64,000 nucleotides of DNA from Ostreococcus lucimarinus. Lineage: Eukaryota. The translations under genes were made by a program, and so were the position numbers. Positions 10,154-46,114 of the stretch are shown here, piece by piece; positions within the stretch are counted from its first letter, which is position 1; every line of letters begins with the position of its first letter. The stretch lies in assembly GCA_000092065.1 (NCBI GenBank), contig CP000586.1; one strand, written 5' to 3'. A model generated the notes under the pieces. The model had not been told where the DNA came from. It worked only from the letters and a program-made list of their open reading frames with translations, and ran no database searches.

Positions 10154-13100
10154 TTAAATATTTGCGTCGGGCGCAGACGCAGCCGCGCGGGCTCGCCGCG
10201 CGCGGAATCGACGCTGAAGTTTTAAGACGACGAGCATGACGCTCATGGAAATTGGCTTGCCGTCGAGATCAAACAATTCGTTCTCGTCGCCTTCTTCTGC
10301 GATTTCCATCTCGCGAATGGACGCAAAAGAGTCCCCGCGAAGTTCATCGGCGGCTTGTTCTTTGCGAGAAAGTTCTCTGACGAGAGTCGCTCTTCGACGG
10401 ACTTTGTTTCGAAGTCTCAAGAGAGAAGCCCGTTTGGCGTTTCTCCGATCCTCCTCGAGTTCGCGGCGAATTTCGAGCGGGAGGTAGTTGAGATCCACAC
10501 CCATAGCCTTGGCCGTAAAAGCCTGCAAGAGCTCGGTGTAATGAAGAAACCTCGACCCTCCTTGTAGATTGAGCGATCGAACGTGGTTGAGCATGCCCAA
10601 GTCAGTGACGCGCTTGCCCTTCAAACCCAATGGTTTTGGCGTGGCGAGAATGATGGCCTTTACGTCGATCGCGCTGACGAAACCGGTGAGATCTGGGTCG
10701 AACTTTTTCCAAACTCTGCGGAAAGCCTTGACGTCTTCAGGAGTCACGTTCTCATTCTCAGCTTCCTTTCTACTCATCGAATAGTTATCGAGCACGACAG
10801 CGATGAGTAAGTTGAGAATAATGAACGAAGAGAAAGCGACAAAGCTGACAAAGTAAACTGGAGCGACGGCGGTGCCGCAACACGTCCCGATGGCGCAATC
10901 GAAAGAAGCGTCGCAGTTTTTCTTGTTCATGCAATCATTCATGATCTCTTGCCACCCCTCGCCGGTCAACATCCGCAAAAGCGTGGAGAGGGAATTTCCA
11001 AAAGTTTTGAAGTTTGCGTGCCTATTGAGCGCTTCGCCATACGCGAGACGCCCGAAGACTTGTGTGCCTAATATGGCGTATATAAAAAACAGCAGCGCCA
11101 ACAACAGAGATATGTTGCCGAGCGCAGGAATTGTCATCACCAGCGTCTGGAACAACGTGTTCAATGATTTCCACTTTTTCACCATACGGAAAACTCTGCA
11201 GATGCGCAGAGCGCGGAACGCGCTAGATCCCGTTCCCGACTGCAAAATTGCACCCAAGATGGACGTTACGACGATGATAAAGTCGAACACATTCCAACCG
11301 GATGAAAAGTAACGTCGCGGGTACAGCGCGCCAATTTTCATCATCGCTTCAACTGCAAACGCAGCCGTGAAGATGTAGTTCAACACATCCAATGCAAACT
11401 TCTTTGAGGAGCTGTCGTGATCCGTCTCCGTCATGAGCACCACGGTGTTAATGAAGATGATAACCATGATGCTCGCATCAAATCTTGTGTCGTTGATCAA
11501 TTGGAAGAGCTTTGCGCGCCACTTTTGATGAGGCGGTCTTCTGAAAAATGATTGTCGAGCGGTGAAGTTCCTGTTGCGCTGCTGAGCAACCCACCTTGCC
11601 TGTGACTCGCTCATAATGGTGCGCGTCAGCGACGTCGTCGATATCTTCAAAAAGTTGTCGATGACGATACCGATGCACATATTGAACAAGAAGAAGTTCG
11701 ACAGAACGATAAAAATGAGGAAATACCACGTCGCGACTGGAGTACGATCTCGCACGGGCGCCACATCCGTGCCCACGGCGTCAGCTGCGTTGAACATAGT
11801 CACTGTCCACCCTTCGCCAGACGTCGTCTCAAACAACGTGAGCATTGCTCGTGGGAAAGAGTCAAAGTTGCTGTCAGCACTCTCCCAATCTCGAGTGACA
11901 TAAACCGCAGATGTGTAGCTGCCAGTGCATGCAGATTCGGTCGTTTTGGTGTAGTCGTTGCACGAAGACGTTATGACATCCCAAGTCCGCACACTCGTGC
12001 CGTTTGACCAAGAATCGACGCACGCCGATTTAGTGAGAATCGTGGGATCGGAGCAACTTTTAAACTTACCCATGAACAACGACATTCCTGCGATAGCAAA
12101 TATGATCCACACAATCAACGATACCAGAAGCACGTACACGAGACTCGGAAGCGATGCAATGAGCGCGTTGATTACCACTTTTAACCCTTGTACTCGCCCG
12201 AGAAGTCGAAGCGGTCGCAAAACGCGCAAAGTACGTAACGCACGAACCCATTTAAGATCCGCGCTGGATCCGAGACCCATACCGAGCAATCCGAAAAACA
12301 CGATAGTGCCATCGAGAACGTTCCACGGGTTCTTCAAGTACGAGTACTTATCGGCGTTGAACATGCCTAACGCGATCCACTTCATCAACAACTCCACCAC
12401 AAATGCAGAAGTGAAACAGTAATCAAGAATTTCTGCTCTCTCCTCAAAGTTTGGATTGTCCATATTCTCTGGCGTCTCCCAACACATGGTTATACTCGAG
12501 GCAATGATCAACATAAGAATGAACCAGTCAAATCGCCTGTCGTCCGCGATCGCGAAGCACGCTTTACGGACTGGGTGCGATGGCTTGAACAATCCAAAAA
12601 AGCTGCTTTGTTCAAACTTAGTGAGCGGAACTTTACTAAGCGCCCCTGGCTGCTTCTTCTGCATGTCCTTCGGACTCATAATGACGCTGGTTGTCTCAGC
12701 GCTACTTTCTTCCTCAATCATCTTTCTGGCTCGCTGCAATCTCAAATTTTCAACTTTAGCCGCTGCTTTTCTCTTCTCTCTCTTCAGCAATTCGTGGGCA
12801 AAATGTGCAAATCTCGTCGCAGTTTGGGATGGCTCATTATTTGCGCTATCATTCGACTCACGACTACGGACACTGTCCGATTTAGTCATTCGCATCCCAG
12901 CAAACACGCCAAAGATACTTTGTTTCTTCGCAGCCCTACTCTCTTGCAGTTGCTCTTGCAGGACTTCTTTGCGATTGTCAAAGTTGCTCAGCAAGATGGC
13001 GATGAGCGAGTTGAGAATGATAAAGTCGCCCAGAATGAGGACGACCACGAAATACAGAAGAGCGACTTTCGCGGTGGTGAACATGGTGTCATACATCACT

Positions 13101-15511
13101 AATGGCCAATCCTCGTGCGTGATGACTTGCACGACAGTAATAATAGCGTTGTTGAAGGTGTCAAAGTTCGACCGCGGCTTTGGGTCAATCTTACAGTAAT
13201 TGCCGCCAAAAAGTTGCATCCCGACGAGCGCAAAAATCAAAACAAATAGACACAAAATCGCTAGAAAACTCGATAAATCGACCAGAGTCTTCCAAATTGT
13301 TTTAAGCGTGCTCTGTAGAGACTGCCACGTTCGCATCAACTTGAGGATTCGGAAAACTCGGAGCGCGCGAAGGACGGTGAATTTTGACTTGCCTTCACCT
13401 CCATTCAAGCCGAGTTCAATACAAGACACGAGCACAATCCCCGCATCCAACCAATTCATGCGATCACGCACGTACTCAGGTATACCAAGCGCTACGACTT
13501 TAATCAATAATTCAAACATGAAAATCGCAGTAAACGCCAGATTCGCGTTTTCCAGCGCCTCTGAGTAACTGTTAGACATGCCGTCGTATTCCATCGCGAG
13601 CACGAGTGTGTTCAACAAAATACTGAAGTTGATGACCATGAAGAAAAAATCACCATCCACGAACTTCCGCGCACGTGGTTGTACGAAGTTCTTTATTCTG
13701 ACGAGTTGCGTTTTGATCCACTCGAGAGTTTGACTGCGTTTGTGGCGCACGACGGACGCGCTCATTGCTTCTCCTAACCCGTCATTCGTGGCACTTTCTG
13801 AGCGTGATAGCGCCTGGATAGCTCTTTCGAAGGTGGAGAAGCTCCCACTCGAGACTCTTTGCAACTCATCCATAATATTCGCGTCGTAAACCATGGTGAT
13901 GATGGCGAGTGCCAAGTTCAATATCACGAACGATCCAAAAAATATCACGGGCAGGAACCACATCACGACCGCAGGCGATACTGAATCTATGAGGTCTAAC
14001 ATCACGGGCGACCAATACTCGAGGGTTATCGTCTGGAAGATCACGAGCCAAGACCACCAGACGCTATCGAAACTCGCGTATCCATAGTTTGGATTTTCGT
14101 GATCTAAACACTCTTGGCCGCTGGGGCACTGCCACGCGGCTTGGGCGGTGGTTCCACATGCTTGATCTTCGTTCTTTTTCAGCAAAACTGCGTCACCAGA
14201 AGCGCGTTTGATGCATCGTACGTATTCTTGCGCCGTGTAACTCTCGCACGGCACGCTTGGCGGAAGTACATCGAAGCACCGTGTTCTCATCTTTCCGGCA
14301 AAGAACTGCACGCCAATGATACCGAAAATGCAGAAGAATAGCAAAAAGAATACAATCACGTTCGCAAGAAGTGGTAGAGACTTCAACATTGTCTCGATCA
14401 GCAATCGAAGCGATGGGAACATGCTAATCGTTCGCAGCGGACGCAGAATTCGCACTGTTCTTAAGGTGGACACGTTTGACCCCATATCGCCTGGCAGGAG
14501 GGCGACGACGGACACGATGACAATGCCAAAGTCCATCACGTTCCACGAGTCGCGTAAATACGCCCCCGAGTTTTTTGTATTCAATTTACCCACCACACCG
14601 AACGCTATCATCTTCAGCAACGCCTCGAGGGTGAATAAAATAGTGAACGTGAGTTCGCTCCGCTCCGCCGCGTCGTTCCTCGCCCCTCGCGTGGCAAACT
14701 GCCCGCACCCTCTACCCTCCAAGCGCTCGGGTTCGCTGAGGCACAGCAAAATCGTATTCGCAGCGATAATCAGCAGTACGATCCAATCAAACTCGTGTCT
14801 CTCGACGAGCTGAATGCAAAACTTGCGAATCGGGTTCTCCGCCCCGAACACCCCGAACGACTTTTCAGCGTAAATCTTCCCACTCACTCCCACGACTAAG
14901 CTATCCTCGCCCTCGATCGACGCATTTCCCGACGCTGACTCTTGCCTCGCCGCACTCACGTTCGCACTTCGTTCTTTCCCACTCTTCGTGTGTTCGCCCA
15001 AGCGATGATAAATGTCCACCAATTGTTCGCCTCGTTCGTCTCGCTCGCCGTCGTCGTCGCTTGAGTGGGAATCTCTCGCCCCGTCCCGATCGATGCCGTA
15101 ATACGATCCATCATCACCATCACCCTCATCGTCGGAATCGTCGCTCGAGCACGGCGCCGGTCCCGCGCGCGTCGCCGCTCCCGCGCGCCGCGTTTCGTCC
15201 TCCGTCTCGCGCTCGCCGCTCGAATTCCCATCGCTCGAATCCGCGCTCCCGTGTCGCATCACCAGCTCCGCGAACGCGACGGACGACAGCGACGCCCCCC
15301 CGCTCGCGCGTCTTCGTCCCTCGCGCGCGTTTTGCGACGCATCGCGCGCGACGAACGCACCGATCGTCCCCGCGCGTCGTGCCTCCGAATTCGCGTTCGC
15401 GTCGTCGTCGTCTTCATCGCGCGCCCTCGCGCCGCCGCGCGCGTCGCGCCGCCGCGTCGGCGCGTCGCCGGAGTCCGACTCCACGCCCCACCGGCTCGGC
15501 GCCATCGGCAT
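10154..15511 (-). CDS. Four-domain voltage-gated cation channel, Cav-like (EEEE selectivity filter)
   Basis: Four repeats of S1-S6 with R/K-spaced S4 segments (e.g. VRALRTLRVLRPLRLL). The pore loops are TLEYW, THEDW, SGEGW and TGEGW, each with a Glu at the selectivity position. There is a C-terminal IQ-like LKLQRRFRARRAR. The ORF-track start at 15646 is GTG. The first ATGs are at 15511 and 15505, so the start is uncertain. Confidence 0.9.
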   Translation of the reverse strand: MPMAPSRWGVESDSGDAPTRRRDARGGARARDEDDDDANANSEARRAGTIGAFVARDASQNAREGRRRASGGASLSSVAFAELVMRHGSADSSDGNSSGERETEDETRRAGAATRAGPAPCSSDDSDDEGDGDDGSYYGIDRDGARDSHSSDDDGERDERGEQLVDIYHRLGEHTKSGKERSANVSAARQESASGNASIEGEDSLVVGVSGKIYAEKSFGVFGAENPIRKFCIQLVERHEFDWIVLLIIAANTILLCLSEPERLEGRGCGQFATRGARNDAAERSELTFTILFTLEALLKMIAFGVVGKLNTKNSGAYLRDSWNVMDFGIVIVSVVALLPGDMGSNVSTLRTVRILRPLRTISMFPSLRLLIETMLKSLPLLANVIVFFLLFFCIFGIIGVQFFAGKMRTRCFDVLPPSVPCESYTAQEYVRCIKRASGDAVLLKKNEDQACGTTAQAAWQCPSGQECLDHENPNYGYASFDSVWWSWLVIFQTITLEYWSPVMLDLIDSVSPAVVMWFLPVIFFGSFVILNLALAIITMVYDANIMDELQRVSSGSFSTFERAIQALSRSESATNDGLGEAMSASVVRHKRSQTLEWIKTQLVRIKNFVQPRARKFVDGDFFFMVINFSILLNTLVLAMEYDGMSNSYSEALENANLAFTAIFMFELLIKVVALGIPEYVRDRMNWLDAGIVLVSCIELGLNGGEGKSKFTVLRALRVFRILKLMRTWQSLQSTLKTIWKTLVDLSSFLAILCLFVLIFALVGMQLFGGNYCKIDPKPRSNFDTFNNAIITVVQVITHEDWPLVMYDTMFTTAKVALLYFVVVLILGDFIILNSLIAILLSNFDNRKEVLQEQLQESRAAKKQSIFGVFAGMRMTKSDSVRSRESNDSANNEPSQTATRFAHFAHELLKREKRKAAAKVENLRLQRARKMIEEESSAETTSVIMSPKDMQKKQPGALSKVPLTKFEQSSFFGLFKPSHPVRKACFAIADDRRFDWFILMLIIASSITMCWETPENMDNPNFEERAEILDYCFTSAFVVELLMKWIALGMFNADKYSYLKNPWNVLDGTIVFFGLLGMGLGSSADLKWVRALRTLRVLRPLRLLGRVQGLKVVINALIASLPSLVYVLLVSLIVWIIFAIAGMSLFMGKFKSCSDPTILTKSACVDSWSNGTSVRTWDVITSSCNDYTKTTESACTGSYTSAVYVTRDWESADSNFDSFPRAMLTLFETTSGEGWTVTMFNAADAVGTDVAPVRDRTPVATWYFLIFIVLSNFFLFNMCIGIVIDNFLKISTTSLTRTIMSESQARWVAQQRNRNFTARQSFFRRPPHQKWRAKLFQLINDTRFDASIMVIIFINTVVLMTETDHDSSSKKFALDVLNYIFTAAFAVEAMMKIGALYPRRYFSSGWNVFDFIIVVTSILGAILQSGTGSSAFRALRICRVFRMVKKWKSLNTLFQTLVMTIPALGNISLLLALLFFIYAILGTQVFGRLAYGEALNRHANFKTFGNSLSTLLRMLTGEGWQEIMNDCMNKKNCDASFDCAIGTCCGTAVAPVYFVSFVAFSSFIILNLLIAVVLDNYSMSRKEAENENVTPEDVKAFRRVWKKFDPDLTGFVSAIDVKAIILATPKPLGLKGKRVTDLGMLNHVRSLNLQGGSRFLHYTELLQAFTAKAMGVDLNYLPLEIRRELEEDRRNAKRASLLRLRNKVRRRATLVRELSRKEQAADELRGDSFASIREMEIAEEGDENELFDLDGKPISMSVMLVVLKLQRRFRARRARAAASAPDANI

Positions 15512-15809
15512 CGCGCGCGGCGCGCGCGCGCGTCGTCGTCTGTCGGCCGGGGCGGCCGGTCTCGTGTCGCAGCGGTAAAAAACACGGACCACGTCGCGCA
15601 TCGGATCGCGTCGCGACGCGCGTCGCGGCGTCGCGCGCTCGCGCACTCGCGCGCGCGCGAACGCGCGGAACGACGCGGGAGAGGCGTTTACACCGCGCGA
15701 AGACGCGCGAGACGCGCGAAAGCGGCGCGCGAAACGGTGAAGACGAACGAGTCGAACGAATCTCCGCGCGGGTGGTTGAAAACGCCGCGACGAGGACGAG
15801 GCGCGCGCG

Positions 15810-27314: not shown

Positions 27315-27353
27315 TTGTGATGAAGAATTGTTTTATAAAAATACATGTCGGGG

Positions 27354-28748
27354 TTACTCCGGAAGCGCCGTGCCTCGTTCCAGATTCGCCTTGATTTCCT
27401 TCGAGTATTTGTCGTAACTCTTCGCGAGCATTTTGTTGAACCGGTCGTTTCTGACGTTGATACCGTCGACGTCCTTTGCGGCGTGAGTCTTTTTTTCATG
27501 CGCCTCGGTTCTCTTGCGTTGCGCTGCGGAGATGCCTTGGGCTAAACGATCAATCGCATCTTGTGACGGCTTGTTCGTGTTGTGGTAAATGCTATCCGCA
27601 CCGCGATAAAAGTCCGGCACGCGCGCTTTTTGCGCTTCGTAATCACTCATATCGATTACCGCGTTGGCTCGCTCTCGTTCGTAGTTGGCGTATTGGCGCT
27701 CGGCGCTAAACTGTCCGGCGTCGCTGGGATCATACGTCTGCTTCTTTTTCCCTTTCTTACGACTCGCCTGTTCCATCGTCGCAGTGAGATGAATGGCGTT
27801 CGGATCGATACCTTGCTTCACTAGTGAGTCCGTGCGAGACTTATTCGAAGCTTCTCGAATCTTCCGCTTCTGTGCGTTGGCGTATTCGTCCGGCGCGTCG
27901 ACGCGCTTCTTCTCCTCCACCACCGCCGCCTGATTTTTCTTTCGTCCTTCGTTCAGCTTGAGCCGCAACTCGAAAAGCTTGCGCTGCTTCGCAGACATTC
28001 CAGCCGTAGGATCGACTGCGTCCGCACCTAAATGTTCCTCCACTACACCACCCGTCGCCGCGGCGCGCGCGGCCAAGGCTTCGGCCTCTGCCGCCGACTC
28101 CTTCAGGCGCCGCGCGGAAGCCGCGTCGGGGTTCTCTGCGCCCACCATTCGCGCTTCTTTATCCGCCAACCGCCTCTCAGCCGCTGCTTTAGCTAAGATT
28201 TCTTTACCAGCCTCCGTGAGTTCCTCTTCCTCGATCAGTTCCGCCGCGATCTCCCCGCACTCGACGATTTTCACCGTCTCCCTCGTCTTGCCCGACTTGG
28301 ACCCGCACGCCTCCACTCGTCGCACGACGTCCATCCCATCCACCACCGATCCGAACACGACGTGTTTCCCATCTAACCAAGGCGTGTCTCCGGTGCATAT
28401 AAAGAACTGCGATCCATTCGTGTGCGGTCCGGCGTTCGCCATGGACAACGTCCCCGCCCCCGCGTGCTTGAGCGTGAAATTCTCATCCCGAAATTTCGGC
28501 CCGTACACCGATTCCCCTCCCGTGCCGTCGTGATTCGTGAAGTCCCCGCCCTGAATCATAAAGTTCGGTATCACTCTGTGGAACGTGCTGTCGGCGTACG
28601 ACAGCCTGTGTCCGCGCTCGTTCGCGCAGAGCTGTCGGAAATTCTCACAGGTTTTCGGCACGACGTCGCTTCGGAGCTCAATCGTGATCCTCCCGACGCG
28701 TTCGCGACCGATCGCGACGTCGAAAAAGACGCGCGGCAGCGGCGACAT
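27354..28748 (-). CDS. Cyclophilin (PPIE-type PPIase domain) fused to splicing factor SYF2
   Basis: N-terminal CLD domain ([34 protein letters not shown]...[20 protein letters not shown]...[22 protein letters not shown]). The C-terminal 250 aa are collinear with human SYF2 ([17 protein letters not shown], ...[33 protein letters not shown] versus [33 protein letters not shown]). It is one continuous ORF. The first ATG is at 28748 (cat 28746-28748); the track start at 28841 is GTG. Confidence 0.8.
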
Positions 28749-28885
28749 CGCGTTCGCTTCGGCGCTCGGCGCGACTGAACCTCGCGCGCGCGTCGCTTTG
28801 ACGCGCGTTCGGTGCGCGGCGACCGCCGCCACGAGTGACACGCCATAACGCGCCGCACCGCGCGCGCCGCGCGTCGTTCGTCGCC

Positions 28886-29488
28886 ATGGGTAAAAATCGC
28901 TTGAAAACCAAGCAATTCGCCGCGGTGAAGCGGATGATTAACCCGAAAGACATCGCCAAGCAGCGCAAAGGCGCGGACAAGTCGGGCGAATCGAACAAGC
29001 GGAAAAACAGAGACGAAATCAAACTCAAACGCGTCGAAACGCAGTCGAGCGCGCTGTTCGGGAAGTACAACGCGCTGCTGAAGCCGCCGTATAACGTCAT
29101 CGTCGATACGAACTTCATAAACTTCAGCATCAAGAATAAGATCGATCTGATGAAAGGGATGATGGATTGCCTGTACGCGGAGTGCGTGCCGCACATCACG
29201 GATTGCGTCATGGCGGAGCTGGAAAAGCTTGGACAAAAGTATCGCGTCGCGCTGCGAATCGCGAAAGATCCAAGATTCGAACGGTTGCCGTGCTCGCACA
29301 AGGGAACGTACGCGGATGATTGCATATGCGAGAGGGTGCGACAACATCGATGTTACATCGTGGCGACGTGCGACACGGATTTAAAGCGACGCATTCGGAA
29401 AATTCCAGGGGTGCCGATCATGTTCATGGGGAATCATAAGTACACCATCGAGCGATTGCCGGACGCGGGTGGGATCGGGAACTCGTGA
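28886..29488 (+). CDS. FCF1: rRNA-processing PIN-domain protein FCF1/UTP24
   Basis: [17 protein letters not shown]...[63 protein letters not shown]...[12 protein letters not shown] is near-identical in pattern to yeast Fcf1. The track start at 28835 is GTG and the ATG is at 28886. Confidence 0.85.
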
Positions 29489-29583
29489 GCGAGTTGGACG
29501 TCGTTTCGAGTAGCTTAGCTTTTGTACATCATCGTGTGATAACATCGTCGAGCGGGCGGTTGGCGCGCGCCACTGCGAGCCGC

Positions 29584-30480
29584 ATGTTCCGAGACGACGA
29601 CGACGACGGCGAACGCGCGCGCGAGGCCGCCGTCATGCGCCAGCGCGCGTATCTCGCCGAGCTCGACGCGCAGTTGGCACATAAGCGCGAGTTGGCGCGA
29701 CGAGACGCCGTCTTCGGCGACGCCGCGCCACACATCCATCGCTCGCACGAATTTCAATATCGCGCGGCGTCGGCGTCGTTATATTCGGACGACGGCGAGA
29801 ACAGACGATGGGAGAAGACGAGGGAATTGGCGTCGTCGCGAAGCGTGGCGCCGCGCGGGATGGTTCGCGAGAACGACGACGACGGTGGCGCTGAGGCGGC
29901 GGAGCGAGAGTGCCGACGAGAGAAGGCGCAGCTGCGAGAGGCGTTGGAGCGGCAAATCGAAGCGAAGCGACTTGAGCGCGAGCGCGAGCGCGCAGCGCGG
30001 GCTCGAGCGGAGGAAGAGGAAGAACGCCGTTTGCGCGAAGAGCAAGCCGAGTTGACTCGACGGTTTGAACGACGTCGGCGGTTCGGTTTGGCGGATGGTT
30101 TAGCGGATGATTTGCACGACGCGTCGTTGAGCGCGAGCGAGGGTGGTTCTGGCGCATCCGGCGCGACAAACGTCATGAATGCGGCTTCGAATGGTGATGC
30201 GTTCGAGTTTATCAAAGTAGAGTCGACGTTCGTGGAGTTGTCGCGAGACGACGAAGAATCCGACGCCGACGAAAAATCAAAGCCGCCGGAGGTCATTCAC
30301 TCGCCGCCGCCGCGGCAGCTCACGGTGGTGGAAACAGTGATGACGGAACCGGCGAAACCGTCTCCGGCGAACAAGACAGAAGACGAAAGTGATGACGACG
30401 AACCATTACTGCGCCAAGGATCTGTGAAAGCCATGGCGAAAATGTGGGATACGCCGGTGAAGTCAAAACGAGCTCCGTAG
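29584..30480 (+). CDS. Hypothetical charged/coiled-coil protein
   Basis: ORF with first ATG at 29584 (the track start at 29485 is GTG and overlaps the FCF1 stop). It has an E/R-rich coiled segment (EKAQLREALERQIEAKRLERERERAARARAEEEEERRLREEQAELTRRFERRRR) and an acidic tail. No family recognised. Confidence 0.3.
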   Translation: MFRDDDDDGERAREAAVMRQRAYLAELDAQLAHKRELARRDAVFGDAAPHIHRSHEFQYRAASASLYSDDGENRRWEKTRELASSRSVAPRGMVRENDDDGGAEAAERECRREKAQLREALERQIEAKRLERERERAARARAEEEEERRLREEQAELTRRFERRRRFGLADGLADDLHDASLSASEGGSGASGATNVMNAASNGDAFEFIKVESTFVELSRDDEESDADEKSKPPEVIHSPPPRQLTVVETVMTEPAKPSPANKTEDESDDDEPLLRQGSVKAMAKMWDTPVKSKRAP

Positions 30481-37875: not shown

Positions 37876-40617
37876 CTATGCGCCGGCGAGAAGCTCTTCG
37901 ACGCGCTTTCTTTTCAACTTTTCCGTGATTTCATCCAACAGAAACCCATCCATGAGTGCGTTGACGTCGGAAATCGTCCCCTCGACGCGATGGTCCTTGA
38001 CTCGACCTTGCGCGAAGTTGTACGTTCGAATCCGTTCGCTTCGATCACCCGTACCGATCAACGAGCTTCGCAGCTCGCTTCGCTCTTTCGCCATCTTCTC
38101 GCGCTCTAAGTCGTACAATCGCGCCTTGAGCACGCTGAACGCCTTGGCTTTGTTCTTGTGCTGGCTTCGCTCGTCTTGGATCACGACTTGGATCCCCGTC
38201 GGCGCGTGCGTGAGGCGAACCGCGGAGTTGGTGGTATTGACGTGCTGACCACCAGCGCCGCTGGCGCGCATGGTGTCGATGCGAACATCCTCCTCTTTGA
38301 TGTCCATCTCCACCTCTTCCGCATGCGGAAGCACCGCGATGGACGCTGTGCTCGTGTGCACTCTGCCTTGCGTCTCCGTCTCGGGCACGCGCTGCACGCG
38401 ATGGACGCCGGATTCAAACTTCAACCTCCCAAATACGCCTTTGCCTAGAATTTCAGCGCTCGCTTCTCGAACGCCCTTACCATCGGTCTCACTCACGTTC
38501 AACGTATCGAACCTCCAACCGCTCTTTCTCGCGTGTAAGGCATACATGCGGAACAGCTCGGCGGCGAAGAGCGCGGCTTCGTCGCCGCCCGCGCCGGCGC
38601 GAACCTCTAAAATCGCGCCCCGATCGTCTGCGTCGTCGTGAGGCAAGAAAAGCAGCTGCAGCGCTAGCTCTTGATCGGGTAAATCGATGTCAACGGCGCG
38701 CAGCTCCTCGCGCGCGAGCTCGGCAAGCTCTTTAGAATCACCCCCGCTCGACGCGTCTCGCACCAATTCCTCGAGAGACGCCTTTTCGGCGCGAAGCTTT
38801 TTGACGACTTCATACTGCTCCGCGATGGGTTCAATTCGGCTGAGTTCCTTGTTTGCTTCGACAACGCGATCGATATCGACGCCTTGGCGCGAGATGAGCG
38901 CGATCAATTCCTCTCGTCGCCGCAGCGCGGCTTCGCCTCTTTCCTCCAAGGCGTCCGTCGAAGACGTCGAAGACGAGTACGACCTCGTTCCGGCCATCGC
39001 GCGCTCGAGCGTCGATCCGACGCGCACGAGCCGAGCTTCTCGGAATTTTGGCGCGATCATTTGCATACCAATGGGTAAGCCGCTCGCCCTCGAGCGCCCA
39101 GCGGGCATGGACATCGCGGGTAAACCCGCGAGCGATGCGGGCACCGTCATGACGTCGGCGGCGTACGTTTGCGCCGGACTCAGTGCCTCGACGTCGGAAA
39201 GTTTTGGTGCCGTCGACACGCTGGATGGTGTGAGCAACACATCTACGCCACCGCCTTCGCCGCCGAACACGTTTGTAAAGTCGTCCGACACCAATCTTCG
39301 AACCTTTTGCGCCTTTTCAAAGTATTCCGCCGCGCGCGCGCTGCTCAGGGCAAACGCGCCGACTGTGACGCGGCGACGAACCTCGTCGCCGAAACCCAAG
39401 CTTCGCGCCTTCGCGATGGCGCTTTGAAACTCTTCAGCAAGATATTCTTCTCGCGAAAGGTCACGCGTGAGGTCACCGTAGCGCATACCGTCGTAACGTG
39501 CGAGATTACTCGACGCCTCGGCCGGGGCGAGGACGTAGTAACACGGCAACGCCGCCTCGGTGTGCGGCATGTTGACGCGCACAATTTCCGCCCCGAGCGC
39601 CTCCATCGCGCGCACCATTTCGTTCCACGCGTCATACACTTCTTGAGTCAATTCGCTCACCGCGTATTCCTCTGGAACGCCCACGCGCAAGCCCTTCAAA
39701 GATGCTGCTTTTGGCGTCGTCTCGTCGACGAATTCGAGCGCCGCCGCGTCTAAATCCTCGCACCGCGCCACCGTCGTCGCGTCCAGGGCGTCCTCGCCCT
39801 GAATCGCCGCGAGCACGACCCCAGCATCACTCACCGTCCGCGCTAAAACCCCCACCGTGTCCAACGAGCTACAATACGACACGAGACCGAACCTACTCAC
39901 CCTGCCGTACGTCGGCTTCAATCCGACCGCGCCGCAATACGCCGCGGGCAATCGCACGCTCCCCCCCGTATCGCTTCCGAGCGCGTAAAACGCCGAACCG
40001 TTCACAACCGCCGCCGCGGACCCCCCGCTCGACCCCCCGCTCGACCTTTCGCCGTCCGACGACGTCGGATTCAGCGTCGTCTGCCCCGACGTCCGCGTGT
40101 GACTCCCCATGCCGAACTCGTCCATGTTCGTCTTCCCAATCAACACCCCCCCCAGCGCGCGCAACCGCGCGATCGCCGTCGCCTCGATCGGCGATTCGTA
40201 CCCCTCCAAAATCCTCGATCCCGCGCTCGTCGTCCCGACGTTCGCGCACAGATTATCCTTCGCCGCGAACGGGACGCCGTCGAGCGCGCTCGCTCGCCGC
40301 CTCGCCTCCCCATCCGCCTCGCCTTCCGTCTCGCCCCGCTCTCGCCGCGCGTCCGACGCGCGCGCGTCCGCCAGCGCGCGTCTCGCGTGCGCGTCTCGCG
40401 ACGCGGCGCTCCCGACGAACGCGCGCGACGTGAGCGCGTCCGCGTCGACGCGACGCGCGCAGTGCGAGAGCAGGTCGACCGCGGTCAGCGCGCGCGCGTC
40501 GAGCGCGCGCGCGGCTTCGGCGACGGTGCGCGGCCACGACGCCGCGGACGTGGACGCGGTCGCGTTCGAGCGCGCGCGCGCGACGCCGCGCGCGGCGCGT
40601 CGCGCGTGGACGCGCAT
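37876..40617 (-). CDS. gatA-prfA: Glu-tRNA(Gln) amidotransferase subunit A (GatA) fused in frame to peptide chain release factor 1 (RF1)
   Basis: A complete GatA (GVPFAAKDNLC...GKTNMDEFGMGS...GGSSGGSAAAV...GSDTGGSVRLPAAYCG...GLPIGMQMIAPKFREARL) and a complete RF1 (EVRAGAGGDEAALFAAELFRMY...RASGAGGQHVNTTNSAVRLTHAPTGI...RIRTYNFAQGRVKDHR) lie in one uninterrupted frame. I chose the first plausible ATG at 40617 (cat 40615-40617). The ORF-track extension to 41265 overlaps a plus-strand gene. Confidence 0.8.
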   Translation of the reverse strand: MRVHARRAARGVARARSNATASTSAASWPRTVAEAARALDARALTAVDLLSHCARRVDADALTSRAFVGSAASRDAHARRALADARASDARRERGETEGEADGEARRRASALDGVPFAAKDNLCANVGTTSAGSRILEGYESPIEATAIARLRALGGVLIGKTNMDEFGMGSHTRTSGQTTLNPTSSDGERSSGGSSGGSAAAVVNGSAFYALGSDTGGSVRLPAAYCGAVGLKPTYGRVSRFGLVSYCSSLDTVGVLARTVSDAGVVLAAIQGEDALDATTVARCEDLDAAALEFVDETTPKAASLKGLRVGVPEEYAVSELTQEVYDAWNEMVRAMEALGAEIVRVNMPHTEAALPCYYVLAPAEASSNLARYDGMRYGDLTRDLSREEYLAEEFQSAIAKARSLGFGDEVRRRVTVGAFALSSARAAEYFEKAQKVRRLVSDDFTNVFGGEGGGVDVLLTPSSVSTAPKLSDVEALSPAQTYAADVMTVPASLAGLPAMSMPAGRSRASGLPIGMQMIAPKFREARLVRVGSTLERAMAGTRSYSSSTSSTDALEERGEAALRRREELIALISRQGVDIDRVVEANKELSRIEPIAEQYEVVKKLRAEKASLEELVRDASSGGDSKELAELAREELRAVDIDLPDQELALQLLFLPHDDADDRGAILEVRAGAGGDEAALFAAELFRMYALHARKSGWRFDTLNVSETDGKGVREASAEILGKGVFGRLKFESGVHRVQRVPETETQGRVHTSTASIAVLPHAEEVEMDIKEEDVRIDTMRASGAGGQHVNTTNSAVRLTHAPTGIQVVIQDERSQHKNKAKAFSVLKARLYDLEREKMAKERSELRSSLIGTGDRSERIRTYNFAQGRVKDHRVEGTISDVNALMDGFLLDEITEKLKRKRVEELLAGA

Positions 40618-40651
40618 CGATCGAGCGAAGACGAGACGGTTGCGGCACACA

Positions 40652-41365
40652 ATGACGCTCGGCGTCGCGCGCGCCGCGGCGCCGTCGCGCGCGCGCGCCG
40701 CGGTCGCGCGCGGTCGTCGCGCGGTCGTCGCCGCGCGTCGTCGCTCGGCCGTCGCGCGCGCGATCGTCGCGCGTCGCGCGCGCGAGGTCGTCGAAGTCGA
40801 CGCCGAAGTCGACGGCGGGCGAACGAACGCCGCGCGAACGACCGTGGCGCTCGCGCTGACGCTCGCGCTGACGCTCGCGACGCCGCACGCGGCGCGCGCG
40901 AGGGAGTTCTTCCCGCAGTCGCCGCCCGACGACCCGATCGAGCCGTTCAGCGTGTTCGGGACGGTGGAGAAGGCGTTCAGCGTCGCGGTGCTCGACGAGA
41001 GTGGGTCGAAAATCGTGGCGAGAAAACGCGGCATGAGCGTGAAGTCGTGCGTGAACGTGGTGCCGGCGTCGAGACAGGGGCCGAGAGGACCGCCCGAGGC
41101 GCTGAGACCGTCGGCGTGCGCGGAGGCGGAGGCGCTGGGGGAGATTCGGGAGCAGCGGGACATGTTGAAGGCGTGCGCGCCGGCGTGCAAGGCGTCGTGC
41201 TCGAGGGCGATCGCGGAGTACGACGAGGGACAGAGGAAGACGACGGGATTTGGGTTAGATGCCAAGGCAAAGGAGCGAGTGTTGAAAGCGTGCGTCGTGA
41301 CGTGCGGGAAGGATTGCGAAAAGGCGGGAAAGTCGTACGATTACATCATACCGTTTCGATTTTGA
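40652..41365 (+). CDS. Small Cys-rich protein with presequence and hydrophobic signal-like segment
   Basis: ATG at 40652. R/A-rich presequence, then TVALALTLALTLATPHAARA, then eight Cys including paired CxxxC motifs (CAPAC, CVVTC). Ends YDYIIPFRF. Confidence 0.4.
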   Translation: MTLGVARAAAPSRARAAVARGRRAVVAARRRSAVARAIVARRAREVVEVDAEVDGGRTNAARTTVALALTLALTLATPHAARAREFFPQSPPDDPIEPFSVFGTVEKAFSVAVLDESGSKIVARKRGMSVKSCVNVVPASRQGPRGPPEALRPSACAEAEALGEIREQRDMLKACAPACKASCSRAIAEYDEGQRKTTGFGLDAKAKERVLKACVVTCGKDCEKAGKSYDYIIPFRF

Positions 41366-41421: not shown

Positions 41422-44345
41422 CTAAGGTTCGCGAGACGATTCGCTGGACGCTGAAAACTCCGCGAGCGCGGCAGCGTACGCCTCTTTCGCCGTCTTGGCA
41501 TCGCTCTCGTACTTGGCTTTGCGTTCTGGATCGAGCGAGGCCCACCGCTCGCCGAGCGCCTTGGCGACTTCGCCGACTTTAAAGGTTGGATTTTCCGCCT
41601 TGACTGACGCGCGTTCGTCCGCCGAGAACGCGAAAAAGGCCGTGAGCGGTTTTTTCATTCCTGGAACTTCCACCTTGGGCTTCGGCGCCTTCTTTGCCTT
41701 TGGATATTTGGCTTCCTTCTTTGCCTCTGGCTCCTTCTTCGGCTTTGGTTCCTTCGCCTTCTTCGGCTCCTTTTTCGCCTTGGTCTTTTTCGAAGCGTAT
41801 CGACCGCGCGTGCGCGGTGGGCGCTCGGCTTTTTTGCGCAACAATTCGACAGCTTCGTCGATATCGACGTTTTCGACCGCACCGACGCGCTTCAATACGG
41901 TTTTCCCGATGGATGCTCTGAGAACTTCGCCGGCGACTTCGGACGCGACGTACCAACCAAATGGGCCAATGTTGAGCGAAACGGGCGCCTGCGTCACCGG
42001 ATGCACACCAAGCACTTTGGGGTATTCAAACATCCCGATGGCTTCCGCGAGAGTGATCTTGTTGACGTCCTTGCCGATGTTTGCCACTCCGACGCGACGA
42101 GGTGCAGGCGGTTTCTTCGGTTTCTTTGCCTTCTTCCCATCCTCTGCCGGCGTCGCCGCCGCGAGCTCTTGAACGCCGAGTTGTAAATATGGGCCATAAG
42201 GACCAAGTCGGAGAGAAATTTCTTTTCCGGTCGCTGGATCAACGCCAAGCACCTTGGGATACATCACTGCGTCGGGATCTTCGACGGTGGCGACGAAATC
42301 TGGATCATCCGTGTCGCTCACGATGGCGCCTCGAATCGGATGCAACGGGTGCGTGAAGCCGCATTCAGGGTAGCGACTGCACCCAATGAATCCACCAGCT
42401 TTTGATGGCTTTAAACCAAGTCTGCCAATTTTACAGCTCGGGCATCTCCGTGCTTCGCTCACGACGTCGTCGGAATCGCTTAATTCGGCGACTTGATCCG
42501 GGTTGATGTGCACGTGGCCGTCATACGTCGCCTCGCCGAAGAGATGCTGCCCGAGCTTCTCATCGAGAGCGTCGATGACTTCGCTCACGCGCAGCTCCGA
42601 AAGCGACGATATTTTATCCCTAAACGGCGTCCACCACTCCTCGAGTAACGGTTTCCATTGTACTTGTTCGCTCGTGATGTCGTCAAGCTTGTGTTCCAAA
42701 TCCGCCGTGAAGCCGTAATCGACGTACGTCTCAAAGTAATTCGTGAGAAACGCAGAGACTAGACGACCGCGAGTCGTGGGAACGAGTGCGGCACCTTGCT
42801 TTGCGACGTACTCACGCTGCGCGAGCACCTTTAAAATCGGTGCGTACGTGCTCGGTCGCCCGATGCCTCGTTCTTCGAGCGCCTTGACGATGGAACCATC
42901 CGTGTAGCGAGGCGGCGGCGACGTTTTGTGCTCTGTCGCCTCGCACCCGAGACTCTCACCGTCAGTTTTCACAGACAAACCTTCGCCTTCACCAAGAATA
43001 GGTAACCACGCGTCGTCTGAAGGTGGCGCAGCTTCGGGTCTGGACGTTCGATACGCCGCAAGGAATCCCGGAAACTTGAGCCTGTGTCCGTTCGCCTTGA
43101 GCTTTAAGTCGTTCTCTGCGGAGGCAATTTCAGCCGCTATGCGATCGGTAAGCGCAGGTGACATTTGTGACGCCATAGTGCGCGCCCAAATCAACGCATA
43201 AAGTCTCGCTTCATCGCTGCCTGGTCCTATTTGCCGCGCAACTTGCGCGGGAAGCCGTCCAGCCTTGGTAGGTCGAATCGCTTCGTGCGCCTCTTGCGCA
43301 TTCTTTTGCTTCTTCTTAAAGTATCTGGGCGATTCAGGCACGTACTCATCACCAAAAAGCTCACCAGCGGTCGTACGCAAGCTTTCAATCGCATGTGGGG
43401 CGACGTACGTGCCATCTGTGCGCATGTACGTAATCAAACCTTCGCCCGTGCCCGCGCCCTCGTACAGTCGTTGCGCCGCCGACATCGTCCTCGACGCACC
43501 GAAACCGAGCTGCTTGTTCGCTTCCTGCTGCATCGTCGACGTCGTGAACGGTGGTCCACTCGTACGCTTGGCTTCGCTGTGCTTCACCTCCACCACCCGC
43601 AGCGTATCGCATTCTCGCACGCGCTTGGCGTACGCCTCGGCTTCGTCGTTCGAAGCGATGGTAAACTTTCCAAGCTTAGCGCCATCGACGTGCGTCAAAG
43701 CGGCGTCAAACGTAGAGCCGTCTTTTGAACTTAAACTCGCCTTCACCGTCCAATACGGCTCGCTCACGAACGCCTCCACCTCTTCCTCTCTTTCGCACAC
43801 TAATCGCAGCGCCACGCTCTGCACGCGACCCGCGGACAGGCTCACGCTCGACGGCAACTTACGCCACAGTAGCCCAGAGAGCGTGAATCCGAATAGATAA
43901 TCCAGCGCGCGTCGCGCCATGTACGCATCAACCATCGGAACGTTAATGTCCCGCGGAGAACCCACCGCGTCGAGCACCGCTGTTTTCGTAATCTCCCCAA
44001 ACGTCACGCGCTTGACGTCCAAGTCGTCGCGCAACAATTTCTTCTCCCGAAGCACCTCGAGCAAGTGCCACGAGATAGCCTCACCCTCTCGGTCTGGATC
44101 CGTCGCGAGCAGCAGCACATCCGTCTTCTTCAACGCCTCCGTGATGTCTCGCATCGCCGCCTTTTGCCTCGACGTCGACGTCCACGTCATCGCGAACGAT
44201 TCCTCCGGCCGCACGCTTCCCTGTTTATTCACCAGATCACGCACGTGCCCGTAGCTCGCCAGCACTTTCGCGTTCGCACCCAAATACTTCTCGATCGTCT
44301 TCGCCTTGGCCGGAGACTCGACGATCATGAGCGTCCGTTTCCCGT

Positions 44346-44385
<40 letters not shown>

Positions 44386-44604
44386 GCCGCTCGCGACCGC
44401 GCGCGCCGTCGCCGCCGTCTTCGTCGTCTCGCCCCATCCACCCTCGCGTCCTCCCCACGCGATCCCGCGCGTCGCGCGCGCGCCGACGCTCGCGACGAGC
44501 CGTCGCACGCCGCCCGCGCGCGCGCGCGCCGTCCACATCGCCGCCGACGACTGCGAATTCCCAACCGACTCCGCGCGCGACGCCGCGGCGCCACTCGCGC
44601 GCAT
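41422..44604 (-). CDS. topA: DNA topoisomerase I, type IA (bacterial TopA-like, organelle-targeted) with a C-terminal HMG box
   Basis: TOPRIM start RTLMIVESPAKAKTIEKYLG, Topo IA core, Zn-ribbon CPSCKIGRLGL...CSRYPECGF, then a Lys-rich linker and an HMG box (KKPLTAFFAFSADERASVKAENPTFKVGEVAKALGERWASLDPERKAKYESDAKTAKEAYAAALAEF). Candidate ATGs are at 44820, 44766, 44604 and 44538. The first two overlap the divergent SEC12 start, so I chose 44604. Confidence 0.85.
44345..44384. repeat. (CGT)n/(ACG)n trinucleotide repeat encoding a 12-residue poly-Thr tract
   Basis: cgtcgtcgt... x13 lies inside the topoisomerase presequence. Similar (ACG)n tracts are at 232-251, 54001-54037 and 57153-57182. Confidence 0.85.
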
Positions 44605-44764
44605 CAACCGCGCCCGCGGACGCGCGCCGCGCGCGGCGACCTCCCCGCGCGTCGCCGCCGCGCGCGGCGCCGCTCGTCCGCGCGGTGCGCGCGCGCGAAT
44701 GCGGCGAACGTCGCGACGCGCGTCGATTCGCGACTCGCCCGAACATCGCGACGCGCGCGCCGCC

Positions 44765-46114
44765 ATGTTCGACCGCGCGAGCGCGCGCGCGCGGCGCGCG
44801 AAGAAGTACGGCCAGCCCATCTACGCCGGCGCGTGGCTGGACGATCGCACCGCGCTCCTCGCCGGGGGCGGCGGGAAGAAGTCGAGCGGGATTCCGAATC
44901 GAATCTTGATCGCGTCGTGCGAGCGTGGCCCGCACGGAACGACGCTGGCGGACGCCGAGGCGTGGACGCACACGGACGAAGACGCGCCGCAGCGGCTGGC
45001 GGTGCACCCGGGGCGCGAACACGTGGTGTGCGCGTTCGGGGGGACGCTGGGGGTGTTTCGAGCGCGGCGAGGCGCGAACGACGGCGCGGACGAGGGCGCG
45101 TCGTCGTCGGGAACGAACGGGGAGGCGCGGTGGACGATCGAATCGTGCGCGAGCGCGTTGGGACTGCCGAATCGCGTGCACGTGACGCCGGATGAGCGGG
45201 AGATTAAGTGCGCGGCGTTCGACGCGGAGGGCGCGCGGTTGGCGCTGGGATTGGAGAGCGGGGAGGTAAAGATTCTAGCGTGGCCGTCGTTGGAGGTGGA
45301 GAAAGAGCTCGGGGCGCACGAGAAAGGGGCGGTGACCGATATCGCCTGGGCGCCCGACGGCGATGGGCTGTTGACGACGTCGGCGGAGAACGCGACGGCG
45401 AGTAACATCGGTCGCGGCGCCGCGGTGTGGAGCGTCGAGCGCGGCGAACGCGTGCTGACGTTGTTCGACGAGTCCATCGTGAAGAAGAGCGGGGTGCGGA
45501 ACGTGGTGTTTCGCGGCGCGGCGTACGGCCGAGGCACGAACGCGTCGACGAGCGTGGCGTGGACTGGGGTGAATCTAGACGGCGAAGGTTGGGTGGTGAA
45601 GTGGGACGTCGCCACGTGGAAAGTCATCAGCAAGGCGCGAGTGTTCAAAAGCGAGCCCATCTCCGGGTTCGCGGTGAACGCGCAGGGTACGCTCATCGCC
45701 GTCGGAAGCTCCGAAGGCGAAGTAAAAGTCGTGGACGCGCAAAAGTTTACGCTCATTAAACCGGTGAAGAAGGCGCACATGATTTTCGTCACCACCATGG
45801 CGTGGAATCCCAAAGGAAACGTCGTCCTCTCGGGCTCCGCCGACGCCAGCGCTTTGGCGACGAAGATCGAAAAGCAGTCATGGACCTTGCGTTTGGTGCT
45901 CTGGTTCACCGTGTTCGTGATGTTGATCGTCGGCTGGATAACGTTGCTGTCGACAATCTTCCCCGACCCGCTCGCGCGCGCGCTCGAAGACGGCGATTAC
46001 GCCCGCGCCGCGCAAGCCGTCGCCGACTATTTCAGCGAGACCAAGATCCCGGCCGCGACGTTAGAAACGATCGAGGACGCCGTCGCCGGCGTCTCCGCCC
46101 GCGACGAGCTTTAG
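44765..46114 (+). CDS. SEC12: SEC12/PREB-like WD40 guanine-nucleotide exchange factor with C-terminal TM anchor
   Basis: KYGQPIYAGAWLDDRTALLAGGGGKKSSGIPNRILI resembles the Sec12 N-terminus ([21 protein letters not shown]). WD blades follow, then TM WTLRLVLWFTVFVMLIVGWITLL. The only in-frame ATG ahead of the conserved start is at 44765. Confidence 0.6.
   Translation: MFDRASARARRAKKYGQPIYAGAWLDDRTALLAGGGGKKSSGIPNRILIASCERGPHGTTLADAEAWTHTDEDAPQRLAVHPGREHVVCAFGGTLGVFRARRGANDGADEGASSSGTNGEARWTIESCASALGLPNRVHVTPDEREIKCAAFDAEGARLALGLESGEVKILAWPSLEVEKELGAHEKGAVTDIAWAPDGDGLLTTSAENATASNIGRGAAVWSVERGERVLTLFDESIVKKSGVRNVVFRGAAYGRGTNASTSVAWTGVNLDGEGWVVKWDVATWKVISKARVFKSEPISGFAVNAQGTLIAVGSSEGEVKVVDAQKFTLIKPVKKAHMIFVTTMAWNPKGNVVLSGSADASALATKIEKQSWTLRLVLWFTVFVMLIVGWITLLSTIFPDPLARALEDGDYARAAQAVADYFSETKIPAATLETIEDAVAGVSARDEL

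Follow-up and report, generated by a model that had tools for sequence, protein, structure and literature searches.

A 64,000-nucleotide stretch of the genome of the picoalga Ostreococcus lucimarinus (GenBank assembly GCA_000092065.1, contig CP000586.1; hereafter the window) contains an open reading frame (ORF) that opens with a cyclophilin domain and closes with a homologue of the splicing factor SYF2. Such a frame raises the question of whether the two halves are made as one protein and, if they are, what kind of cyclophilin has been joined to SYF2 and what it does there. Our answer is that the locus is very probably an SYF2 gene in cyclophilin-fused form, whose SYF2 part would anchor the protein in the spliceosome and carry a catalytically intact cyclophilin on a flexible tether. 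Its sequence marks the gene as an ordinary orthologue within an already published fusion family. An original prediction, made from the letters of the window, had proposed that the fusion joins two spliceosome-associated activities; this is supported by the single ORF, in which a cyclophilin is followed by a full-length SYF2 homologue.

One reading frame for a cyclophilin and SYF2

The ORF lies on the minus strand and runs uninterrupted from a first ATG (28748-28746) to a stop codon (27356-27354). No intron is needed for the reading frame. The original prediction had described a single ORF at 27354-28748 beginning at the first ATG. Coordinates and start were correct, the length is to be read as 464 residues plus the stop codon, and the minus strand had gone unstated. 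All the peptide motifs that it quoted were found in the translation. Mechanical ORF calling extends the frame to 495 codons from an in-frame GTG upstream of the ATG; in the alignment, the relatives share the start MSPLPRVF.

Pfam found two domains only in the translation, PF00160 (cyclophilin) and PF08231 (SYF2), in agreement with the earlier remark that the ORF has no RRM. PF00160 was matched at amino acids (aa) 11-165 (28254-28718; profile positions 4-158 of 159; E 5e-50, 170 bits). All 12 of the residues that form the active site and the cyclosporin A contacts of human CypA are kept: R58, F63, M64, Q66, A104, N105, A106, Q114, F116, W124, L125 and H129 (in human CypA numbering R55, F60, M61, Q63, A101, N102, A103, Q111, F113, W121, L122 and H126; the reference sequence was checked against PDB 1AK4). 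The cyclophilin domain of the fusion is presumably an active peptidyl-prolyl isomerase (PPIase).

PF08231 was matched at aa 313-457 (27378-27812; profile positions 3-154 of 154; E 1e-29, 104 bits). Residues 252-461 aligned to residues 31-242 of the 243 of human SYF2 (E 1.6e-21), and the SYF2 half also aligned to residues 27-234 of 234 in C. elegans syf-2 and to residues 4-229 of 229 in S. pombe syf2. These alignments cover nearly the whole length of each reference, and the proposed collinearity with full-length SYF2 can be upheld. Matches of this strength lie far outside what chance would give. N434 and N438 in this half are invariant in 32 family members.

The 77 residues between the two regions are rich in Ala and Glu (24 Ala, 18 Asp plus Glu and 10 Lys plus Arg) and carry a semi-conserved motif. 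AlphaFold2, run with a 32-sequence alignment, gave a mean per-residue confidence (pLDDT) of 73 and a predicted template modelling score (pTM) of 0.41. The model has a beta-barrel cyclophilin at aa 1-167 (pLDDT mostly 80-92), linker helices at 179-199 and 207-231, a break at 232-244 (pLDDT < 50) and long SYF2 helices at aa 253-311 (pLDDT 84-91) that are followed by shorter ones. Because confidence is low at 232-244 and the pTM is only 0.41, the model predicts no fixed packing between the cyclophilin and SYF2 halves.

Relatives and the reality of the fusion

The original prediction did not know the architecture as a standard one. The literature already describes it as a subfamily of cyclophilins with a member from Ostreococcus tauri (PMC2713222, PMC3143110), and the Chlamydomonas orthologue is the Syf2 chain of PDB entry 8XI2. 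Krücken, Greif and von Samson-Himmelstjerna (2009, Parasit Vectors 2:27; PMC2713222) distinguished 16 subfamilies of cyclophilins, among them "Cyps with SYF2 domain", which have a Cyp_ABH domain immediately N-terminal, a poorly conserved middle and SYF2 near the C-terminus. Their apicomplexan members come from Toxoplasma, Plasmodium, Babesia and Cryptosporidium muris (TgCyp66.2, PyCyp74, PfCyp80.9 and BbCyp57.3 are listed), and the members from outside the Apicomplexa are Tetrahymena XP_001019212 (CSY1), Paramecium XP_001423850 and O. tauri CAL53491 (PMC2713222). The Gene deFuser paper of 2011 (PMC3143110) named the Tetrahymena gene CSY1 and repeated the O. tauri exception, and a 2024 review places an SYF2 region in PfCyP81 and PvCyP65. 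The window protein has the N-terminal Cyp_ABH domain and the C-terminal PF08231 of this subfamily on the same polypeptide and is collinear with members over its full length.

The best match in the PDB was 8xi2_M, which aligned in both halves (E 1.5e-101). It is a protein of 563 aa, annotated as "PPIase cyclophilin-type domain-containing protein", and chain M of 8XI2 is the "Syf2" (Cre01.g037400, A0A2K3E769) of the C* spliceosome of Chlamydomonas reinhardtii (EMBO J 2024; PMC11833078). Only residues 441-510 and 529-543 of it were modelled, both in the SYF2 part; the word "cyclophilin" never occurs in that paper, and PPIE is given as "not observed" (PMC11833078).

Proteins with PF00160 and PF08231 formed dozens of clusters with 32-78% identity to the window protein. 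Alignments of 14 and of 32 members were collinear from end to end, and more than 30 diverged relatives have retained the architecture. The O. tauri protein (P0293; CEF98346.1/XP_022839218.1, 471 aa) shows 72% identity and aligns collinearly throughout; it belongs to the cluster of P0009, which is itself 70% identical to the window protein. Members from Volvox, Trebouxia, Haematococcus and Symbiochloris (45-47% identity) and from Tetrahymena and Polyplicarium (35-37%) are likewise collinear. Fused proteins with a named source come from Volvox reticuliferus, Haematococcus lacustris, Trebouxia sp., Symbiochloris irregularis, Tetrahymena malaccensis and the gregarine Polyplicarium (the last a Trinity transcript), and metagenome proteins resembling those of Mamiellophyceae are also fused. 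Cluster members with Tara labels appear from their header format (strand, start and stop) to be gene calls on contigs, and we did not count them as transcripts. In relatives at the level of Ostreococcus, identity was 72-82% in the cyclophilin, 54-61% in the 77-residue linker, 78-85% in the N-terminal motif region of SYF2 and 67-78% in the SYF2 Pfam region. The linker is in frame in all the relatives aligned.

Some sequences had the appearance of unfused algal SYF2. Four metagenome proteins of this kind (P0184-P0186 and P0189) begin within the C-terminus of the cyclophilin (MFGAVVEGMDVVRRIE...CG...), and we discarded them as truncated calls of the fusion. Streptophyte SYF2 from Typha (P0202) and Closterium (P0223) is truly unfused and has unrelated N-terminal extensions. 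The survey of related algae that had been proposed to tell separate from fused genes found the fused form in the chlorophytes sampled, the SYF2-only metagenome hits being clipped calls of it. It looks like a general feature of chlorophytes (Mamiellophyceae-like metagenome sequences, Chlorophyceae and Trebouxiophyceae), and neither of the two streptophytes sampled has it.

One metagenome relative, P0068, has an insertion of 32 residues at aa ~99-130 (VRPAPSPTRRALHPIHPSADLTSLLPNSNRSQ) that splits the conserved SMANAG motif within its cyclophilin half. This is most likely an in-frame intron of a Micromonas-like contig that was translated by a prokaryote-style gene caller.

Might the joined frame be an artefact of assembly or sequencing, produced by a frameshift, a chimeric join or the loss of a stop codon? 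Among the contigs that we read from the assembly collection, 24 encode an identical protein of 464 aa (31 blocks in the index). The six places shown for it are six different samples, namely five assemblies from ENA (Tara included) and one Logan run. A stop or frameshift between the domains in other sequence would have spoken for separate genes; none occurs in any contig that encodes the identical protein. The same collinear architecture recurs in many species and in one PDB entry. Identical contigs and conserved architecture together exclude an artefact, to which we assign practically no probability.

A more serious alternative is that the long ORF is an in-frame juxtaposition from which a free cyclophilin and a free SYF2 are made, the latter by an internal start of transcription or translation at Met251. 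This methionine (27996-27998, minus strand) lies exactly at the start of the SYF2 homology. Ostreococcus, Volvox, Trebouxia and Symbiochloris all retain it, and the annotation of Volvox carteri has a 218-aa SYF2 (P0201) that begins at its equivalent. However, Chlamydomonas, Haematococcus and two Micromonas-like relatives (P0068 and P0075) have Leu at this position, which therefore cannot be a required start. The linker is in frame, free of stop codons and carries a conserved motif across Mamiellophyceae-like sequences at 35-61% identity, and its 77 residues leave no non-coding spacer for a promoter. Furthermore, the Polyplicarium Trinity transcript encodes the fused protein. Since V. reticuliferus is annotated with a fused protein (519 aa), the 218-aa model of V. 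carteri is probably truncated. Two separate products are thus very improbable.

A single mRNA and a single protein are predicted for the source alga, with indirect support from the Polyplicarium transcript and the conserved frame of the linker. Two points weigh against a fused protein at work in the spliceosome. A separate SYF2 product starting at Met251 is still formally conceivable in some species. Moreover, the cyclophilin domain is neither visible in 8XI2 nor mentioned with it, so the structure is no proof that the spliceosome-bound Chlamydomonas protein still carries its cyclophilin.

Affinity of the cyclophilin half and proposed function

The cyclophilin domain had been described as being of PPIE type. 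If it were a PPIE orthologue, the RRM of PPIE would have been swapped for SYF2 and the protein re-anchored through SYF2. Such a replacement is conceivable in functional terms, as PPIE and SYF2 of human spliceosomes are both situated close to SYF1. Apicomplexans, in which the SYF2 fusion occurs, have no PPIE-like cyclophilins according to Krücken et al. (2009, PMC2713222), and the domain is locally similar to human PPIE in the motifs LRSDVVPxTxENFRxLC and GDFTNH-GTGG. Over the whole domain, however, identity was 62.1% to human PPIE, 60.7% to PPIA, 63.6% to PPIF and 62.4% to C. elegans CYP-3, and thus no higher to PPIE than to the other three. The best single-domain matches in the PDB search were of the ABH type: PPIF reached 238 bits, against 232 bits for C. 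elegans PPIE, 223-225 bits for human PPIE and 224 bits for PPIA, with 222-232 bits as the whole range for PPIE. The PPIE, PPIA and CYP-3 references were identical to PDB chains, and wild-type PPIF differed from the chain listed first, 3qyu_A, by one residue (K to I). A bootstrapped neighbour-joining tree with a small reference set gave no supported grouping of the domain with PPIE. The tree is poorly resolved, re-rooting leaves some of its support values looking doubtful, and we take it only as providing no evidence for an affinity to PPIE.

Sequence signatures point in the same direction. Most family members, among them those of O. tauri, Volvox, Chlamydomonas, Tetrahymena and Polyplicarium, have a divergent loop of 7-8 residues (xKSGKxLH) and a GGES motif, as CYP-3 does. 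PPIE, PPIA and PPIF have neither of the two. A divergent loop of this kind is typical of plant cytosolic cyclophilins. In the window protein the loop (aa 44-52, about 28593-28619, minus strand) is shortened to ERGHRLSY, with two extra residues. It is also short in P0008 and P0075, whereas the full 7-8-residue insertion is present in O. tauri, P0002 and P0006; closely related picoalgae have therefore lost the loop repeatedly. In the maximum-likelihood tree of Krücken et al., SYF2-Cyps form a Cyp_ABH subfamily of their own, and PPIA, PPIE and PPIF go with S. pombe Cyp1 (PMC2713222). On the identities, the neighbour-joining tree and the loop and GGES signatures we rejected PPIE orthology of the domain, which we regard as improbable. 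PPIE is at most a functional analogue from a different family.

What, then, would a cyclophilin fused to SYF2 do? By homology, the C-terminal 220 residues, a full-length SYF2, should dock into the part of the activated and catalytic spliceosome that is related to the Nineteen complex (NTC). The analogy with the Chlamydomonas orthologue, which cryo-EM has placed in this part, suggests that the window protein is incorporated at the Syf2 site. The N-terminal 167 residues form a cyclophilin of Cyp_ABH type that has kept all its catalytic residues and is joined to SYF2 through the partly helical and partly disordered linker. This tether would keep the cyclophilin at a high local concentration near the neighbours of SYF2, where it could isomerise or bind proline-containing segments of spliceosomal proteins during remodelling. 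The proposal presumes that the mature protein retains its cyclophilin domain and that this domain has its substrates in the spliceosome.

Other spliceophilins are recruited comparably, by an RRM (PPIE, PPIL4), a U-box (PPIL2) or WD40 repeats (PPWD1). In human complexes, SYF2 contacts PPIL1, and PPIE lies by SYF1, AQR and ISY1; the neighbourhood of human SYF2 already employs cyclophilins. In rice, the cyclophilin OsCYP20-2 binds OsSYF2 in yeast two-hybrid and pull-down assays (Ge et al. 2020; PMC7483694).

The locus itself matters little, being the expected orthologue of a fusion that was catalogued in 2009 with the sister species O. tauri included. The family is of wider interest as a Rosetta-stone fusion, which argues that a CypA-like cyclophilin works on or beside SYF2. 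Two points go slightly beyond the accounts consulted: the apparent generality of the fusion in chlorophytes and the cyclophilin half of the Chlamydomonas "Syf2", which the structure paper neither remarks on nor places. A bolder suggestion, which we consider rather unlikely, is that the fusion may be the only SYF2 gene across the Chlorophyta, where the literature names O. tauri only, with streptophytes unfused, that it may share its origin with the alveolate fusion, and that it may replace PPIE where an RRM-cyclophilin is absent. If true, it would be a rare genomic character that links or separates deep lineages, a matter of the family and not of this locus. It would also be a natural Rosetta-stone prediction of a partnership between cyclophilin and SYF2, one which in rice is found between the separate proteins OsCYP20-2 and OsSYF2.

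The locus, the window and known systems

The features of the locus are collected in Table 1.

Table 1. Coordinates of the cyclophilin-SYF2 gene, its parts and the adjoining spacers in the window
Feature	Position	Strand	Basis
Cyclophilin-SYF2 coding sequence, complete	27354..28748	-	ORF list, translation, both Pfam domains whole, end-to-end alignment to 8xi2_M
Cyp_ABH-type PPIase domain, aa 1-167	28248..28748	-	Pfam, PDB matches, active-site residues, AlphaFold2
Inter-domain linker, aa 168-244	28017..28247	-	Composition, per-region identity, AlphaFold2
SYF2-homologous region, aa 245-464	27357..28016	-	Pfam, SYF2 alignments, AlphaFold2
Equivalent of Chlamydomonas Syf2 441-510 (larger modelled C* segment), aa 348-413	27510..27707	-	Hand count in alignment; Appendix Table S2, PMC11833078
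Equivalent of Chlamydomonas Syf2 529-543 (second modelled segment), aa 431-445	27414..27458	-	Alignment; Appendix Table S2, PMC11833078
Divergent spacer, 137 bp, from the start codon of this gene to the ATG of the Fcf1/PIN-domain gene (28886, plus strand)	28749..28885	.	Sequence, gene calls and Pfam on identical contigs
Convergent spacer, 39 bp, AT-rich, between the stops of the 5-oxoprolinase-like gene (plus strand, ends 27314) and the cyclophilin-SYF2 gene	27315..27353	.	Sequence, ORFs, Pfam families of neighbours

Genes are tightly packed here at ~60% GC, as expected for an intron-poor picoalga. The order Ssl1/TFIIH, a 331-aa unknown, Fcf1, cyclophilin-SYF2 and a 1329-aa 5-oxoprolinase-like protein is the same at all six places shown. 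The divergent spacer is presumed, from its position, to be a promoter region shared by the cyclophilin-SYF2 and Fcf1 genes. A tblastn search confined to the 64-kb window found no second SYF2, no second cyclophilin and no PPIE-like RRM.

The 331-codon ORF (29485-30480, plus strand) encodes a highly charged, low-complexity protein rich in Arg, Glu and Asp with no Pfam match. Its called GTG start lies within the Fcf1 gene, 4 bp from the end, and the ORF holds its position at all six places shown for identical contigs.

Elsewhere in the window, an uninterrupted ORF of 1129 codons (37876-41265, minus strand) encodes an Amidase domain like that of GatA (PF01425, aa 317-746) and, directly after it, PCRF and RF-1 (aa 791-1093), the domains of a class-I peptide release factor. 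There is no stop between the domains, and M757 is the only methionine near the junction. It could be a fusion of an amidase and a class-I release factor, both proteins of organellar translation, or a pair of adjacent genes that share a frame by chance. Beside it, at 41422-44820 (minus strand), lies a type IA DNA topoisomerase (Toprim, Topoisom_bac, Zn ribbon and C-terminal repeats) with a C-terminal HMG box at aa 1056-1122. The 1830-codon ORF at 10154-15646 (minus strand) encodes a four-repeat cation channel of the voltage-gated type (Ion_trans x4, E 5e-234); it lies where the window has its one stretch of low GC (0.47-0.52 at 10-14 kb, about 0.60 elsewhere).

The cyclophilin-SYF2 protein can be compared with five known systems. 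It shares with the subfamily of Krücken et al. the N-terminal Cyp_ABH domain, the poorly conserved linker and the C-terminal SYF2 (PF08231). Unlike most apicomplexan members, which have 508-677 aa, it is only 464 aa long, with a compact linker of 77 residues, and its divergent loop has two extra residues as against the 7-8 of O. tauri and most members. The Chlamydomonas Syf2 has the same architecture and demonstrates that a fusion of this kind fills the Syf2 position in the spliceosome with its SYF2 part; it is longer by 99 residues, mainly in the linker, has the full divergent loop and carries Leu in place of Met251.

Stand-alone SYF2 (also p29 or GCIP-interacting protein; human, yeast, C. 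elegans and streptophyte) is collinear with the C-terminal part (aa 252-461 for the human protein) and shares its two conserved motifs but has no cyclophilin domain. PPIE/Cyp33 resembles the fusion in that a second module brings a Cyp_ABH-type catalytic domain, 62% identical, to the neighbourhood of NTC and SYF1. In PPIE, however, the order is reversed, with the partner, an RRM, at the N-terminus, and its catalytic domain lacks the divergent loop and is no closer than that of PPIF or CYP-3. The rice pair of OsCYP20-2 and OsSYF2, finally, consists of a single-domain cyclophilin and an SYF2 that bind each other. Although encoded by two separate genes, it is the separate-protein counterpart of the fusion.

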